NCBI GenBank assembly: GCA_040289515.1
Contig: PSLI01000008.1
Location: 1 to 63,207 of the forward strand
Length of the DNA: 63,207 nt
Direction: 5' to 3'
DNA from: Candidatus Sysuimicrobiota bacterium
Lineage (GTDB): Bacteria > Sysuimicrobiota > Sysuimicrobiia > Sysuimicrobiales > Sysuimicrobiaceae
Positions 4,233-13,418 of the stretch are shown in pieces. Each line of letters starts with the position of its first letter. The first letter of the stretch is position 1. Position numbers and translations under genes: made by a program. A model generated the notes under the pieces. The model was not told the origin of the DNA, did no database searches, and saw only the letters and a program-made list of their open reading frames with translations.

Positions 4233-5113
4233 ATGGAAGGCGCGCCTGCGAACCCCACCGGGCCCCGCTGGGCCCACCCGGCCTACACCCTCAGTTGGCT
4301 GGCCATGGGCGTCCTCCTGCTGGGCGCCTCCGCCTCCCAACTTCTCGCTCACCCGCAGCCCCAGCCGCTGCTGGGTTTCGGCCTGCTGGCAGTGGTGGGA
4401 ACCGCGGTGGCGGTGCGCTTCCCTCCAGGGTCATCCTCGGGATGCGAGGACGTCCACCGCCATGTTCCTTGCGCGCACGCTCCTGTGGCACTACTGGGGT
4501 GGCCCCCTTCCCGCTGAAGTACAGCTGCGCGACCTCCTGGCCCTCCTGCTGGCGGGGCTGCTCCACGGGGCCATCAATACGCCCTCCGCAGCCGTCGCCA
4601 GGCTGTTCGGGGGCAAAATTCCGGACTGCTACAGCCGAAGGCCCCTCTGGGCATGCTGGGTGTGAGCGTAGCCGTTTATGGCCCCATCTCCGCCGTGCTG
4701 GCACTGGCCCACCGCATAGGCGTACCCGTGTTCGCACTAACCTCGTCCATATGGCTGCTTGTGGGCCTCACCCTGCAGGCGTACTTCCGAGCCAGGGAGC
4801 TGCAACTGGAGCTGGAGAAGGCAACCCGCGAGCTGGATCACCTGGCCACTACGGACTCCCTCACCGAGCTGGGTAACCGCCGCAGCTTCCTGGAGGTAGC
4901 CCAGCTCGAGCTTGCGCGCCACCGGCGGTACGGGGGCCCCGTGAGCCTCGTACTGCTGGACCTGCGGCACTTCAAGCGGGTCAACGACACCCTGGGCCAC
5001 CAGGCCGGGGACCAGGTCCTGAGGTGGGTGGCGCACGTGCCCTGTACCAGGCTCGCCACGAGGGCACCTGGATGGGGATCCCCCCACCTCACAGCACGAG
5101 CTCCACGGGGTAG
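4233..5113 (+). pseudogene. Decayed membrane diguanylate cyclase (paralog of 2391-3611)
   Basis: TM segments are split over several frames. TDSLTELGNRR...FKRVNDTLGHQAGD is present but jumps at about 5040 to the C-terminal LYQARHEG in another frame; the GGDEF core is missing. Confidence 0.8.
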
Positions 5114-6300
5114 CCTCCCAGGTTCACCGCGCCGTCCTCTGTGATGGCCCACACGTCCTCCAAGCGCACCCCGATGCCCGAGTCCGGGTAGTACAGCCCC
5201 GGTTCGACCGTCACCACGCACCCCGGCCGCAATACCGCATCGTTTCCCGGGTAGTCGGACAAGCGTGGCTCCTCGTGCACGTCCAGCCCCAGGCCGTGAC
5301 CCAAGCTGTGCACGTAGCCCACCTGGGTGGTGGGCTGCGTGCACACCGTGGGGTGGCCGCGGGACTCAAAGAACTCGCAGGCCATCCGCTGTAGCTCGGC
5401 GCAGGGTGTGCCGGGCCTCAGGGCTTCGGTCACGCTCACGTAGCACTCATACACGTCCCGGTACACCCGCAGCAGCTCCTCGCTGGGGCGTCCGATGCAC
5501 CACGTCCGGGTCATGTCGAAGTGGTATCCCCCGCCCGCGCGTCTTGGGAACACGTCGAACACAATGGGGCTGCCCGCGGCCAGAGGGTGCGCGTCCTCAC
5601 CCCTGGAGTGGGGAAACCCAGCATCCCGGCCCTGAGCGAAGATGATATCCGGCCCCTCGAGCCCTTCCTCCGCAAGCCAGGCACGGATCCTGGCTTTCAC
5701 GTCCCCTACCGTGAGCGGGCTGCCGTCCTGTTTGCGCAGCACTCCCCCTCCCACTGGGCAGCCCCGCAGGAACTCCGCGGTCCTGTGCACAACCCGCTGG
5801 GCGGCTGCCCCAGCCTTGCGGATCTCGTCCACCTCGTGGGGGTCCTTGGTCTCCCGGGCTACGGCCAGCACGGAGCGCCCGTACTCGCCCACCACCTCCA
5901 CGTCCTCCAGGTCGCAGGCCAGCCTGCCGAGGAACCGGTAAGCGGCCCCCTGGTCCATCTCGCCGTAGAAGGCCACGCGGCCGCGCACCCCCTCGTCCTC
6001 GAACAGCCTGCGGAACAACAGCACCCTTGCCTCCAGAGGGTCACCGCGGGCCTGCTGCAGTAGATCCTTCCAGTCGTACAGCCCCAGGTTGCGGGTGCGC
6101 AGCCCGGTCTTGCTGGCCTCGCCCCGCTCCATCGTCCCGTGGCAGACAACCCCCGGGTCCCCCCGCTTCTTGATGTACACCGCCCCCTGGATGGCCACCC
6201 CGCCCAGCACGTACAGCATGTTGGCCTCGTCCGCCCGCCCTGCCACCACGAGAGCGTCAAGCCCACGCTCCTCCATCAACCTATCCAGGTCCGCCTTCAC
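5089..6300 (-). CDS. Xaa-Pro aminopeptidase family (M24)
   Basis: FDVFP, DMTRT, HSLGHGLGLDVHEEP, TVEPGLY, GVRLED metal ligands. Confidence 0.9.
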   Translation of the reverse strand: MKADLDRLMEERGLDALVVAGRADEANMLYVLGGVAIQGAVYIKKRGDPGVVCHGTMERGEASKTGLRTRNLGLYDWKDLLQQARGDPLEARVLLFRRLFEDEGVRGRVAFYGEMDQGAAYRFLGRLACDLEDVEVVGEYGRSVLAVARETKDPHEVDEIRKAGAAAQRVVHRTAEFLRGCPVGGGVLRKQDGSPLTVGDVKARIRAWLAEEGLEGPDIIFAQGRDAGFPHSRGEDAHPLAAGSPIVFDVFPRRAGGGYHFDMTRTWCIGRPSEELLRVYRDVYECYVSVTEALRPGTPCAELQRMACEFFESRGHPTVCTQPTTQVGYVHSLGHGLGLDVHEEPRLSDYPGNDAVLRPGCVVTVEPGLYYPDSGIGVRLEDVWAITEDGAVNLGGYPVELVL

Positions 6301-6322
6301 GGCGCCACCCCGCGGTGGTGCT

Positions 6323-6338
6323 TATTTCTTGAGAAATA
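6323..6338. promoter_or_regulatory. Candidate non-canonical parS site TATTTCTTGAGAAATA
   Basis: Perfect 8-bp inverted repeat TTATTTCT-TG-AGAAATAA (6322-6339) immediately after the parB stop; 16-bp parS/NBS-like geometry. Confidence 0.65.
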
Positions 6339-6345
6339 ACGCAGC

Positions 6346-7203
6346 CTACGCTACGGGACCGGCCAGGATCAGTTCGGCGATCCGGCCCAGGTCCTCTTCG
6401 GAGTAGAACTCGATCTCCACTAGCCCGCGCTTGCGGCCCGCCCGCACCCGTACCCGCGTTCCCAGACGCTGGCTCAGAGCCTCTTCCAAAGCAACGTGGT
6501 CGGGGTCGCGGCGCAGCCGTCCGCGCCTTGTTCTGCGGGACGGGAAAGCTCGCACCAGCCGCGTGAGCTCCCGTACGGGCAACTGTCGGAGGACCGCCTG
6601 AGAAGCCAGCTCCACCTGACGTGCGGGTTCCTGTACCTCCAGCAGCACACGTGCGTGAGCCTCGGACAGCTGCCCTTCCGCCACGTAGTGCAGGACCTCC
6701 TCCGGAAGCGCCAGCAGCCGCAGGGTGTTGGCCACCGCGGGCTGGCTGCGGCCTAAAAGCTCCGCGACCTCCCTCTGGCTGAGCCCAAACTCCTCCACAA
6801 GCCTGCGGTAGGCCCGGGCGCGCTCCAGGGGGTTCAGGTCCTGGCGCTGCAGGTTCTCCACCAGGGCCAGGGCCAGGCTCTCCAGCTCTCCCACCTGCCT
6901 CACCACCGCGGGCATGGTAGCCAGGCCTGCCAGCACCGCAGCCCGCCACCTGCGCTCGCCCGCCACGATCTCGTAACCGTCCTGCACGGGCCTTACCACG
7001 ATGGGCTGCAGGACCCCGTGGGCCCGCACGGACGCAGCAAGCTCCTGCAGCTCCTCCTGGGGGATGGATGCCCTTGGCTGGTTCCTCCCGGGTCTAATGC
7101 GGTCCGTGGGAAGGTGCTCGATGCGTTCGCCCTCCCTGAGGGCGTCCGCTCCCGGGATCAGGGCCGAAAGGCCCCGGCCAAGCCCTCTACCACGTCCGCT
7201 CAC
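6346..7203 (-). CDS. parB: Chromosome partition protein ParB/Spo0J
   Basis: N-terminal GLGRGLSALI ParA-contact motif, GVLQPI, GERRWRAA CTPase box, ENLQRQDL, HTH. Confidence 0.97.
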   Translation of the reverse strand: MSGRGRGLGRGLSALIPGADALREGERIEHLPTDRIRPGRNQPRASIPQEELQELAASVRAHGVLQPIVVRPVQDGYEIVAGERRWRAAVLAGLATMPAVVRQVGELESLALALVENLQRQDLNPLERARAYRRLVEEFGLSQREVAELLGRSQPAVANTLRLLALPEEVLHYVAEGQLSEAHARVLLEVQEPARQVELASQAVLRQLPVRELTRLVRAFPSRRTRRGRLRRDPDHVALEEALSQRLGTRVRVRAGRKRGLVEIEFYSEEDLGRIAELILAGPVA

Positions 7204-7988
7204 GGAGCCAACCCCCCCACGCCCGCCCGCGGGCGCAGGGCTGCCACCACATCCTGAGCCAGCGCCTCGTACGCCAGCGCTCCCTTGGACTGCGGGTCGT
7301 ACAGCAGGATGGGCTTGCCGTGGCTGGGTGCCTCCGCCAGCCGCACGCTGCGGGGGATGACGGTCTTCGCCACCCGCCCCGGGAAGTGGGCCCGCACCTC
7401 CTGTGCCACCTGCTCGCTGAGGTTGGTCCTAGGGTCGTACATGGTCAGCACCACCAGGGCCACGTGGAGACGGGGGTTCAGGGTGTTTCGCACCAGCTCC
7501 ACGGTGCGCAGCATCCAGGCCAGCCCCTCCAGGGCATAGAACTCGCACTGGATGGGCACAAGCAACCCGTCCGCGGCGGCGAGGGCGTTGACCGTGAGCA
7601 GGCCCAGGCTGGGCGGGCAGTCCACCAGGATCCAGTCGTAGCGGTCCTGCACAGGCTGCAACACCTCCCGGAGCCGGGTCTCCCTGGGCTGGGCGTGCAC
7701 CAGCTCCACCTCCGCGCCGGCTAGGTCGAGGCTGCTTGGTAACAGGTCCAGTCCTTCCAGCTCGGTGGGTAGCGCGGCCTGCTTGAGCGAGGCACCCCGC
7801 AGCAGGCAGTCGTAGGTGGACAGCCTCACGTACGCACGGTGAACTCCCAGCCCGCTGGTGGCGTTGCCCTGCGGGTCCAGATCGACCACCAGGACCCTCC
7901 AGCGGCCCCGAGCCAGGTACGCACCCAGGTTCACCGCGGTGGTGGTTTTGCCCACCCCGCCTTTCTGGTTTGCCACCGCGAGGATCAC
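7200..7988 (-). CDS. parA: Chromosome partition ATPase ParA/Soj
   Basis: NQKGGVGKTT deviant Walker A, DLDPQGN, DCPPSLG, IPRSVRLAEAPSHG. Confidence 0.97.
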   Translation of the reverse strand: MILAVANQKGGVGKTTTAVNLGAYLARGRWRVLVVDLDPQGNATSGLGVHRAYVRLSTYDCLLRGASLKQAALPTELEGLDLLPSSLDLAGAEVELVHAQPRETRLREVLQPVQDRYDWILVDCPPSLGLLTVNALAAADGLLVPIQCEFYALEGLAWMLRTVELVRNTLNPRLHVALVVLTMYDPRTNLSEQVAQEVRAHFPGRVAKTVIPRSVRLAEAPSHGKPILLYDPQSKGALAYEALAQDVVAALRPRAGVGGLAP

Positions 7989-8046
7989 AACTGGGTTTTT
8001 CGTACCGATCCCCCGCGGATCCTCTAATGCAGGTTCGAGTGTCGCG

Positions 8047-8062
8047 TATTTCTCGGCAAATA
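8047..8062. promoter_or_regulatory. Candidate non-canonical parS site TATTTCTCGGCAAATA
   Basis: Imperfect 16-bp palindrome upstream of parA, 13/16 identical to the 6323-6338 site. Confidence 0.55.
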
Positions 8063-8080: not shown

Positions 8081-8689
8081 CTAGACCAGGAGGACCGCCA
8101 CCCGCCGGACCTTACCCCGCTCCCATGGGACTGGCCTTTGCAGTTCCTGAAACGGAGGCCGGACGGGTCGCTGTGGGCCGACGGGCACCACAACCCTGCC
8201 GGCTGGCCTCACAAGCCCCCGCGCTAAGCGTGCCACTTGCTCGGGCGTCCCAAGCGCCCTACACACGGCCATCTGGAATTGCCGTGCGTAGCGCGCCTGT
8301 TTTGCTGCCTGTTCTGCCCGTAGGGGCTCCGCCTGCGCGTTGCGCAGCCCCAGCTCCAACACCACCCGCTCCACGAAAGCCGCCCGCTTGCGCCTCGGCT
8401 CCAGCATGACCACCCACAGGTCCGGTCTGGCCACGGCCCATACCACACCGGGCAGGCCCGCGCCGCTCCCCACGTCCACTACCCACGCGGCGGGAGCGGG
8501 GTCCGCCATCACCAGCAGGAGCAGACTGTCGAGAATGTGGGCGCGCAACACCTCTTCAGGACCCGCAGGGGCCACAAGGTCCACCTTCCGGCTCCACTCC
8601 GCCAGCAGGTCCCGGTAGCGCAGAAGGCGGCTTTTCTGATCCTCCGATACCTCCAGACCCAGAGCCCGGCAGGCTGCCTCAAGGTCCAC
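8081..8689 (-). CDS. rsmG: 16S rRNA m7G527 methyltransferase
   Basis: HILDSL, VDVGSGAGLPG, LEPRRKRAAF, VCRAL; canonical position next to parA. Confidence 0.92.
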   Translation of the reverse strand: MDLEAACRALGLEVSEDQKSRLLRYRDLLAEWSRKVDLVAPAGPEEVLRAHILDSLLLLVMADPAPAAWVVDVGSGAGLPGVVWAVARPDLWVVMLEPRRKRAAFVERVVLELGLRNAQAEPLRAEQAAKQARYARQFQMAVCRALGTPEQVARLARGLVRPAGRVVVPVGPQRPVRPPFQELQRPVPWERGKVRRVAVLLV

Positions 8690-9389
8690 GGCCCGGTGCA
8701 GGCGTGCGCCGGACCGGCCTGCGCCCTGCTCCCCGGGCACGGTGGGCCTGGGCAGGTTCCACCACCACATGGCGGTTCTCCCCGGTACCTTCGCTGCGTG
8801 TGATCACCTTGGGATCGCCAGCGAGAGCTGAGTGCACCACCCGCCGCTCTCTGGCGTCCATGGGGGGCAGGTGCACCGGCTTGCCCTGCGCCACCGCCCT
8901 CCGCGCGGCTCGCCGCGCCAGCTCCGCCACGTGCTGGCGCCGCCGGGCCCGGTAGCCCCCAATGTCCACCTCCACCTCCGCCCGGGAACCCGTGGCCTGG
9001 TGCACCATGGCGCTTAACACCGTCTGGATTGCTTCGATTCCCTGCCCTCGGCGGCCAATCAAAAGCCCCAGGTCCTCACCCCGCACATCCACGAACATCC
9101 CGCGCTCGGTGGCATGCGCCAACACCTGAGCGGAGAACCCCATTTTGCTAACCAGGGTCCTGGCCAGCTCCGTGGCCGCGGCGAGCGTACGGGCGTCCGC
9201 AGGCTCGTCCCGGACCTGCGCCCGCGGCACCACCCGCACCCTGGCCTCCCGCGCCCCCAATCCGAAGACCCCTCGAGACCCCTCGTCCAGCACGTGGATC
9301 TCCGCCTCTTCCTTGGTCAGTCCGGCCCTCTCCAGGGCCGCGGCGATGGCCTCCTCCACCGTTCTTCCAGACGCCACGACCTCCCTCAC
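8679..9389 (-). CDS. jag: RNA-binding protein Jag/EloR/KhpB (Jag_N, KH, R3H)
   Basis: SGRTVEEAI, LIGRRGQ (KH), ERRVVH (R3H). GTG overlaps the yidC stop. Confidence 0.93.
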   Translation of the reverse strand: MREVVASGRTVEEAIAAALERAGLTKEEAEIHVLDEGSRGVFGLGAREARVRVVPRAQVRDEPADARTLAAATELARTLVSKMGFSAQVLAHATERGMFVDVRGEDLGLLIGRRGQGIEAIQTVLSAMVHQATGSRAEVEVDIGGYRARRRQHVAELARRAARRAVAQGKPVHLPPMDARERRVVHSALAGDPKVITRSEGTGENRHVVVEPAQAHRARGAGRRPVRRTPAPGRGP

Positions 9390-10899: not shown

Positions 10900-11121
10900 T
10901 GTGGAAAGCCTGTCGGCAACCCCACCGGATATCCACAACCGGAACCTCCCGCAAGACCCCCGGTCGGGTTTTTCGAACAGCCCCCTCGGAAGCCCACCGT
11001 CATCCACAGGTTTTTCAGTTCCTGTGGATAACTCCGCACCCGCACCGTCTCACGCAAGCGCAAGCCACAGTCAGACTCGCGGCGGTAAGGTTTTCCGCAC
11101 CCGCTTCACGGTTTCCGAACA
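10900..11121. promoter_or_regulatory. oriC upstream DnaA-box cluster
   Basis: Perfect TGTGGATAA 11023-11031; one-mismatch boxes at 10900-10908, 10929-10937, 11000-11008 and 11091-11099. Confidence 0.85.
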
Positions 11122-11212
11122 CTTTCCCGGAAATCGGCGAAAACCACACGCCTCATCGGAGGGGCGCAGGAGTATGCTTGTCCTTGGCCAACACCTCGCG
11201 AGGGGGATGGGC

Positions 11213-11995
11213 ATGTCGCTGCGCGACCTCCTGACCCAGATCCTCGAGGAGCGGGAGGGTCGTCGCGAGCCCGAAGGTCCTCCCGAGGTACGGGTGGCCG
11301 TGTACGACTCGCCCCTCGCGGAACCACGGGTGATCTCGTTGTCCAGCGACGACTTTCACGACCTGGTGGGCAAGCTGGCGGCCACCACCTTCGACCATGC
11401 GCAGCGCCGCGGCGGCCGGATCCCGTACGTGGTGATCCGCGAGATCGTGGAGAACCTCATCCACGCGTACTTCCGCAACGCGGTCATCACCGTCAGCGAC
11501 GACGGAAACACCATCCGCATCTCCGACCACGGTCCGGGCATCCCCGACAAGGAGCGGGCCCTGCAGCCGGGCTTCACCACCGCCACCCCCACCATGCGCC
11601 GGCTTATCCGCGGCGTGGGCTCCGGCCTACCCGTGGCGCGGGACCAGCTCACCTTTTTGGGCGGTGCCATCACCATCGAGGACAACCTCGCGGGCGGCAC
11701 CGTGGTGACCCTGCGTCTGCAACCGGAACGCACGCCGCGGGCGCCCAGCGCCTCCGCACCGCGCCCCGCCCTCACCGAACGGCAGCGGCGCGTGCTCCTG
11801 CTCGTGGCGGAGATGGGCGCCGCAGGGCCGAGTGCGGTGGCGGGCGAGCTCGGCATCAGTCTCACCACCGCGTACCGGGAGCTCGCCGCCCTGGAACGCC
11901 TGGGCCTGCTACACACCCAGGCCCGTGGTCGGCGCAGCCTCTCGGAGCAGGGGCTGCGCTTCGTGGACCAACTCTTCCGTCCACCGAAACCGTGA
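11213..11995 (+). CDS. GHKL (HATPase_c) ATP-binding protein with C-terminal winged HTH
   Basis: N box REIVENLIHA, G1 ISDHGPGI, F box PGFTT, G2 GVGSGL, G3 GGTVV; no H-box. C-terminal LTERQRRVLLLV...VAGELGISLTTAYRELAALERLGLL. ATG 11213 after GAGGGG; TATGCT at 11173-11178. Confidence 0.85.
   Translation: MSLRDLLTQILEEREGRREPEGPPEVRVAVYDSPLAEPRVISLSSDDFHDLVGKLAATTFDHAQRRGGRIPYVVIREIVENLIHAYFRNAVITVSDDGNTIRISDHGPGIPDKERALQPGFTTATPTMRRLIRGVGSGLPVARDQLTFLGGAITIEDNLAGGTVVTLRLQPERTPRAPSASAPRPALTERQRRVLLLVAEMGAAGPSAVAGELGISLTTAYRELAALERLGLLHTQARGRRSLSEQGLRFVDQLFRPPKP

Positions 11996-12056: not shown

Positions 12057-13418
<1,362 letters not shown>

Follow-up and report, generated by a model that had tools for sequence, protein, structure and literature searches.

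A probably recoded ParB–parS pair in the chromosomal ParABS system of Candidatus Sysuimicrobiota

Primary chromosomes are described as sharing one parS, with variant palindromes found on secondary replicons (PMC5450999), and Arg173 and Gly201 (Caulobacter numbering) have been called absolutely conserved in ParB orthologues (PMC7383237). The parAB locus discussed here encodes glutamine and alanine at these positions and is bracketed by two AT-rich palindromes. What DNA site does such a ParB read, and does it still serve the primary chromosome? The best answer, at a probability of roughly 0.88, is that this is the primary chromosome's ParABS with a recoded ParB–parS pair, the palindromes being its predicted parS. 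Judged from sequence, the system is a chromosomal ParABS and its new part would be the ParB–parS pair.

A parAB operon near the probable origin and its flanking palindromes

The window (the whole stretch analysed, 63,207 nucleotides of contig PSLI01000008.1) comes from an assembly of 1.99 Mb with 70% GC, 76 contigs and 96.7% completeness. Within it, parB (6346..7203, minus strand) encodes a 285-aa protein with a ParB_N domain carrying the GERRWRA CTPase motif, an HTH_ParB and a ParB_C domain, and an N-terminal GLGRGL ParA-activating peptide. The protein scores above the cut-off for all three Pfam models (PF02195, PF17762 and PF23552) and is the only ParB_N profile match in the genome. Its start is overlapped by parA (7200..7988, minus strand), which encodes a 262-aa Soj-type Walker A ATPase with an AAA_31 match. 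Next comes rsmG/gidB (8081..8770, minus strand; GidB match), a member of the usual origin gene order, followed by what we take, from their sequences, to be jag, yidC, yidD, rnpA and rpmH. Three DnaA-box-like 9-mers upstream of dnaA (10929..11031) mark a probable oriC, some 3 kb away from the upstream palindrome; they account for three of the four matches to the DnaA box in the window at one mismatch or fewer. The dnaA ORF ends at 13418, and the box cluster and dnaA lie some 3-5 kb from the upstream palindrome. Between the cluster and dnaA is an ORF (10901-11995, plus strand) encoding a GHKL-type ATPase domain with a helix-turn-helix at its C-terminus. Elsewhere in the genome, a motif match identifies a candidate smc ORF.

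The downstream palindrome, TATTTCTTGAGAAATA (6323..6338), begins 8 nt past the parB stop and differs at one position from the proposed palindrome TATTTCTCGAGAAATA. The upstream one, TATTTCTCGGCAAATA (8047..8062), lies between rsmG and parA and has two mismatches. When TATTTCTCGAGAAATA was searched for with up to three mismatches, these two were the sole matches in both the window and the whole 1.99-Mb assembly, and none of 100 dinucleotide shuffles of the window reached two matches. The sequence and location of the bracketing pair, noted earlier from the letters alone, are confirmed, and its uniqueness is established. Canonical parS, TGTTTCACGTGAAACA, has no match at three or fewer mismatches in the window, where the preliminary description had reported no full canonical parS, and none at two or fewer in the genome; two matches appear genome-wide at three mismatches. 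A TTCC variant of parS gives one near-match (C32:6432), inside an ORF on a different contig. An M24 peptidase gene (5089-6300, minus strand) lies directly 3' of parB with the downstream palindrome in between, an arrangement shared by many relatives with the same ParB residues.

The residues themselves were placed by alignment to Caulobacter ParB (6T1F) and the residue list of PMC7383237. The codon at 6742-6744 (minus strand) is CAG and gives Gln154, equivalent to Caulobacter R173, and that at 6658-6660 (minus strand) is GCT and gives Ala182, equivalent to G201. T160 and A165 correspond to positions 179 and 184, completing the specificity set Q-T-A-A that had been read from the letters. The parS and NBS consensus sequences given at that stage, together with the rules pairing Q173 with adenine 1 and R201 with cytosine 6, are as printed in PMC7383237. 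Residue states are given below as the pair at 173/201, so that the window ParB is Q/A.

Could the protein instead be orthologous to Noc, or be a plasmid-type ParB gained by horizontal transfer? Q173 and NBS-like sites are both characteristic of Noc, and among NCBIfam models it is one for Noc that scores highest. That score, however, is 216.6 bits, under the 315-bit cut-off of TIGR04285, and the residue set is not the Q173-K179-K184-R201 of Noc. The protein is no paralogue beside a ParB but the sole ParB of its genome, encoded right after parA at the origin, and its sites are limited to parAB, not spread chromosome-wide. Its GLGRGL N-terminus resembles that of Thermus Spo0J and aligns with the Spo0J LGRGL peptide. 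Trees of ParB and of RpoB/C both recover the Q/A proteins as one clade, as vertical descent predicts. This explanation is already largely refuted and retains very little probability, in agreement with the earlier assignment as a true ParB. Most hallmarks of chromosomal ParB (Spo0J) are present, namely ParB_N, HTH_ParB, the C-terminal dimerisation domain, GERRxRA, the N-terminal LGRGL peptide and the position after parA at the origin, while R173/G201 with canonical parS near oriC is not found. Q173/A201 without canonical parS defines a variant, and the window ParB stays among ParB orthologues. A single-sequence AlphaFold model was set aside (mean pLDDT 52; below 50 for residues 1-111, where an N-terminal membrane-binding amphipathic helix as in Noc would be sought).

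A second alternative concerns the DNA, whose AT-rich stretch might be the T-tract of an intrinsic terminator with an incidental palindrome. Terminator-like hairpins do adjoin the downstream palindrome of the window genome on both strands, and a dual role as parS candidate and terminator is possible at 6323-6338. The upstream site has no such hairpin, however, and 14 of 22 Q/A sites lack an adjacent hairpin on either strand, and termination is rejected as the main role. Nor would a T-tract keep a 16-bp palindrome conserved. As an account of the palindromes, the terminator is scarcely tenable, and a recoded parS remains the preferred reading.

Residues and sites change together across the phylum

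Ca. Sysuimicrobiota is a phylum with one order (PMC11604079), which fits the 94 genomes of one order retrieved here. A ParB match was found in 83 of these, and 81 loci were analysed after exclusion of two unpublished genomes. Flanks of 1.5-3 kb were scanned with a pattern that fixed neither the outer purine nor the inner base of a half-site. The counts exclude a second, foreign R/G ParB in G001 and a distant ParB-like match in G003. In G001, the foreign parAB continues from the native rsmG and upstream site, and the native parAB is preceded by foreign DNA (L082 and L087; contigs C21 and C38); the junction at the 5' end of parA looks like chimeric assembly or recombination.

ParB proteins of the R173/G201 type, in 23 genomes from 8 genera, are accompanied by canonical parS, with an outer G in 61 of 62 half-sites and an inner A in 60 of 62, and the site lies inside parB in all 23. 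Q173/G201 proteins are the most numerous (44 genomes, 18 genera) and are found with TATTTCACGTGAAATA, in which the outer base is A in 102/102 half-sites and the inner base A in 96/102. In 43 of these 44 genomes the site is again inside parB. It occupies the linker position seen in the R/G class, and its change alters the encoded peptide from VSRET to ISREI. This shared position makes the Q/G site the positional homologue of canonical parS, with both arms changed.

The Q173/A201 state of the window occurs in 13 genomes from 4 genera, where TATTTC[T/C]CG[A/G]GAAATA flanks parAB and the in-gene site is missing in every case. The same site adjoins ParBs 58% and 76% identical to the window ParB in Ca. 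Sysuimicrobium and Ca. Tepidifontimicrobium. The outer base is A in all 44 half-sites, bringing the total beside Q-ParBs to 146/146, while the inner base is T in 32, C in 10, G in 2 and A in none. A downstream-type site follows or overlaps the parB stop at 12 of the 13 loci, and in the thirteenth genome it lies on the contig that carries the parB 3' end; an upstream-type site lies 794-941 nt 5' of parB at 10 of 13. Searches of all 13 genomes in full found 21 matches to TRTTTCNCGNGAAAYA with at most one mismatch, every one of them at parAB. Perfect TATTTCTCGAGAAATA occurs in 10 of the 13, and the upstream site is a perfect NBS consensus in three. Both sites of the window genome are imperfect, as are both in G009, which has 2-mismatch sites only. 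The palindromes thus have what is expected of parS: 16 bp, few copies, proximity to the origin and a conserved position.

The remaining genome has P173/G201 (L039 / L224; G050:C1:58213-59615). It lacks an in-gene site and carries three CACGTG-core palindromes upstream of parA, with T as the outer base.

Covariation of residues with site, proposed from the window alone, is upheld across the 81 genomes. Taken with positional homology, the exclusive location at parAB and the single ParB, it indicates that protein and site were very probably recoded together, and the palindromes are very probably the parS of the window ParB. A regulator unrelated to ParB, acting on the parAB operon or on the peptidase gene downstream, might instead bind the palindromes. 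They do sit at operon ends, and the same 16-mer is scattered in Atribacterota with R/G ParB, where another protein may read it. Such a regulator would not explain why the site bases track ParB residues 173 and 201, or why the Q/G site sits inside parB at the canonical parS position. The 13 Q/A genomes also hold no further copies at one mismatch or fewer, unlike a regulon. This alternative is very unlikely.

A more serious rival is one of degree. The Q/A ParB may simply have relaxed inner-base specificity, taking T, C, G and perhaps A, with T as the historical choice of the lineage. The palindrome would then still be parS, in agreement with the preferred reading, yet it would form no discrete class apart from NBS or the Q/G site. 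The mixed inner bases of the upstream Q/A sites (T 11, C 8, G 1) are consistent with this, as are the three genomes whose upstream site is a perfect NBS and whose downstream site has T, and the R/A sites of Omnitrophota with G, A, C and T (see below). Against it stand the lack of inner A in 44/44 Q/A half-sites, although A is the state of all other classes, the loss of the in-gene site in 13/13, and an inner T in 21 of 24 downstream halves. Relaxed specificity is thus a reading to be taken seriously, although we hold it to be rather less than probable. The preliminary pairing of Ala201 with an inner T holds for 32 of the 44 Q/A half-sites and has to be widened to T or C. The Q/A class thereby overlaps the Noc site, so that orthogonality to NBS is improbable.

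Related genomes are not independent observations: the residue states are family-level and amount to about four changes within the phylum. Quick RpoB/C trees place the Q/A genomes in one clade, grouped with R/G family f4 and set apart from the Q/G families and R/G family f7 (99% SH-aLRT). They imply that residue 173 changed three times and residue 201 once (to Ala, a single event within the phylum), and every change goes with a corresponding one in the site. A single Q clade is unrejected, however (p-AU 0.085). A ParA+ParB tree with one long outgroup puts the root inside the Q/A group, and a ParB tree with 45 outside ParBs nests the phylum R/G proteins among Q/G with weak support. With one Q clade still unrejected and the root placed differently by the ParB trees, we assign no sequence to these changes. 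Two gains of Q, or one gain and reversions, are both compatible with the trees, and R-to-Q may have occurred twice in the phylum.

Comparable states outside the phylum

Among the 150 nearest ParB representatives at 50% identity, 139 are R/G, 5 R/A, 2 R/S and one each H/G, P/G, T/K and Q/G, with no Q/A; the Q/G protein groups within Ca. Sysuimicrobiota. An exact-site scan of GTDB found at least 121 loci, plus 6 viral loci, and 41 loci had short flanks. Par-region genes occur at 7 of the 127 listed loci, five with a Q/A helix and two with the parB 3' end alone. The six matches in viral contigs have no par genes nearby.

Atribacterota are over-represented among the exact matches (6 of the 127 listed loci). 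Their ParB is canonical R/G in four of five genomes searched (the fifth had no match) and the matches lie away from parAB, so a second Q/A lineage is not represented by them. In these genomes (G094-G098; L125, L136, L169, L180, L207 and L215), TATTTCTCGAGAAATA and near-matches are distributed over several contigs, with 2-6 per genome. A gut ParB with Ala201 (P0077) says nothing about the A201 rule, because no related protein shares its alanine: at 80 related loci, each distinct HTH carries G201 and is found with canonical parS.

Omnitrophota provided an independent test of the rule. The sample comprised 83 parB loci, the best-scoring from 151, 61 and 31 genomes and two more. R173/A201 occurs at 30 loci, mostly from one family, with exact-core sites at 16 and none within 1.5 kb at 14. 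None of the 18 sites has inner A in both halves, and the 36 inner bases are G 16, A 15, C 3 and T 2. At the 19 R/G loci, inner A is found on both sides at 15 of 20 sites. Ala201 thus accompanies loss of the symmetric core and a shift to G, not T, and the proposal that Ala201 selects T as a general rule fails. Most sites in the family of G213 (L259, L344-L349, L373-L400) are asymmetric, with A in one half and G in the other. Asymmetric sites also occur in two of its three G201 members (L379 and L400; L377 has none), which speaks against a strict rule, and single members with K173 (L347) or H173 (L398) have T as the outer base.

A further Omnitrophota family (G104; L260, L401-L424) combines K173 with T or S at 201. 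Sites were found at 25 of the 27 loci with K, as one to six GTTT[T/C]CACGTG[A/G]AAAC palindromes upstream of parA, the outer base being T in 145 of 146 half-sites. In five of these genomes, searched whole, there is no R- or Q-type site at one mismatch or fewer. To judge by these patterns, the K173 family is a further recoded chromosomal ParB–parS class. The window had been described as a "third specificity class"; a recoded state stands, while the ordinal does not, as the phylum alone has R/G, Q/G, Q/A and one P/G, to which Omnitrophota add K173 and R/A.

Proposed reading of the site and known counterparts

Binding, base contacts and function are inferred as follows. A ParB dimer would bind at the two 16-bp palindromes that flank its operon, some 3-5 kb away from the probable oriC, then close on CTP, slide, and act with ParA and SMC in origin segregation. 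These later steps are those of the family, the motifs being intact, and would proceed as in other systems (PMC7333895). Gln154, in place of Arg173, would read the outer adenine as in Noc; this contact between Q173 and adenine 1 is established for Noc and for engineered ParB (PMC7383237). Ala182, in place of Gly201, would disfavour the canonical inner A:T pair and so give the palindrome of the Q/A class. Gly201 puts no side chain beside thymine -6 (PMC7383237), so the methyl group of alanine could disfavour that thymine, perhaps by a clash with its own methyl.

An objection to this reading concerns affinity. In Caulobacter ParB, the Q-T-A-G combination failed to bind any of 16 sites, and Q173 required a lysine at 179 or 184 (PMC7383237). 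None of the 57 natural Q-ParBs in the phylum has K or R at either position, and in nine of the genomes the protein is Q-T-A-G and the hybrid site adjoins its gene, so binding by these proteins would need some other compensation. K or R is found at 171 in 53 of the 57 Q-ParBs versus none of the 23 phylum R/G proteins, of which 21 have D or E at 184; this suggests that charge is balanced around residue 173. However, Caulobacter ParB also has K171, so the compensation for lysine must lie elsewhere, and His175 is a candidate position, at which all 57 Q-ParBs carry S, A, T or G.

Several known systems resemble the locus in part. Chromosomal ParABS of Caulobacter (PDB 6S6H/6T1F), B. subtilis, Thermus (Spo0J) and Myxococcus shares its origin gene order, a three-domain ParB with GERRxRA and GLGRGL, and a 16-bp palindrome near oriC in a TTTC-CG-GAAA frame. 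Noc–NBS of Bacillota (PDB 6Y93) shares Q173, the outer adenine and, in three Q/A genomes, the exact site. In contrast to Noc, the window ParB lacks K179, K184 and R201, has the ParA-activating N-terminus and no paralogue, and its class keeps one or two sites at parAB, whereas those of Noc are many and distributed round the chromosome. The engineered ParB-to-Noc intermediates QKAG, QTKG and QKKG bound hybrids of adenine 1 with the canonical position 6 (PMC7383237), which is the natural Q/G site type. The Bsr families of centromeres in Burkholderiales are likewise 16-bp palindromes centred on CG, and every family has its cognate ParB, but they belong to secondary chromosomes and plasmids (PMC5450999), whereas here the sole ParB of a primary chromosome would be recoded.

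No publication containing TATTTCACGTGAAATA, or ParB and parS together with TATTTCTCGAGAAATA, was found in a literature search that reached a minority of subscription papers. K173-type sites were likewise absent from the publications among the matches listed, and no title or abstract opening indicated a recoded primary-chromosome parS. QTAA was not found in a searched supplement of PMC7383237, and parS is not discussed in the passages retrieved from two papers on the phylum.

A wider reading, for which we see the odds as even, is that primary-chromosome centromeres have been repeatedly recoded under a simple code. Residue 173 would pair Arg with G, Gln with A, and Lys, Pro or His with T, while Ala201 would break the symmetric CACGTG core, all without gene duplication and without the permissive lysines of laboratory evolution. 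The Q/A ParB would then represent, in a living lineage, a counterpart of the ParB-to-Noc transition, with a literal Noc site as centromere, reached via Gln173 without lysine, the path ranked last by the published model. The graded natural series (R/G, Q/G, Q/A and P/G, with K173 and R/A in Omnitrophota), each state beside a matching site, makes the published model of ParB/Noc specificity evolution testable on real proteins. Among these are the natural Q-T-A-G proteins, although the combination is dead in Caulobacter ParB (PMC7383237). Natural examples of a protein and its DNA site switching specificity in step are very probably present in an uncultured lineage. Genomes scored as lacking parS may hold recoded sites. 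The pairs are also candidate orthogonal ParB/parS tools for locus labelling, here probably thermostable, as the window genome appears to belong to a hot-spring family for which an optimum near 70 C is predicted (PMC11962464).

One further palindrome type was seen. Genome G012 carries clustered TTTCGCGCGAAA-type repeats on four contigs (C14, C17, C29 and C60), spaced by about 33 nt and unrelated to parAB.
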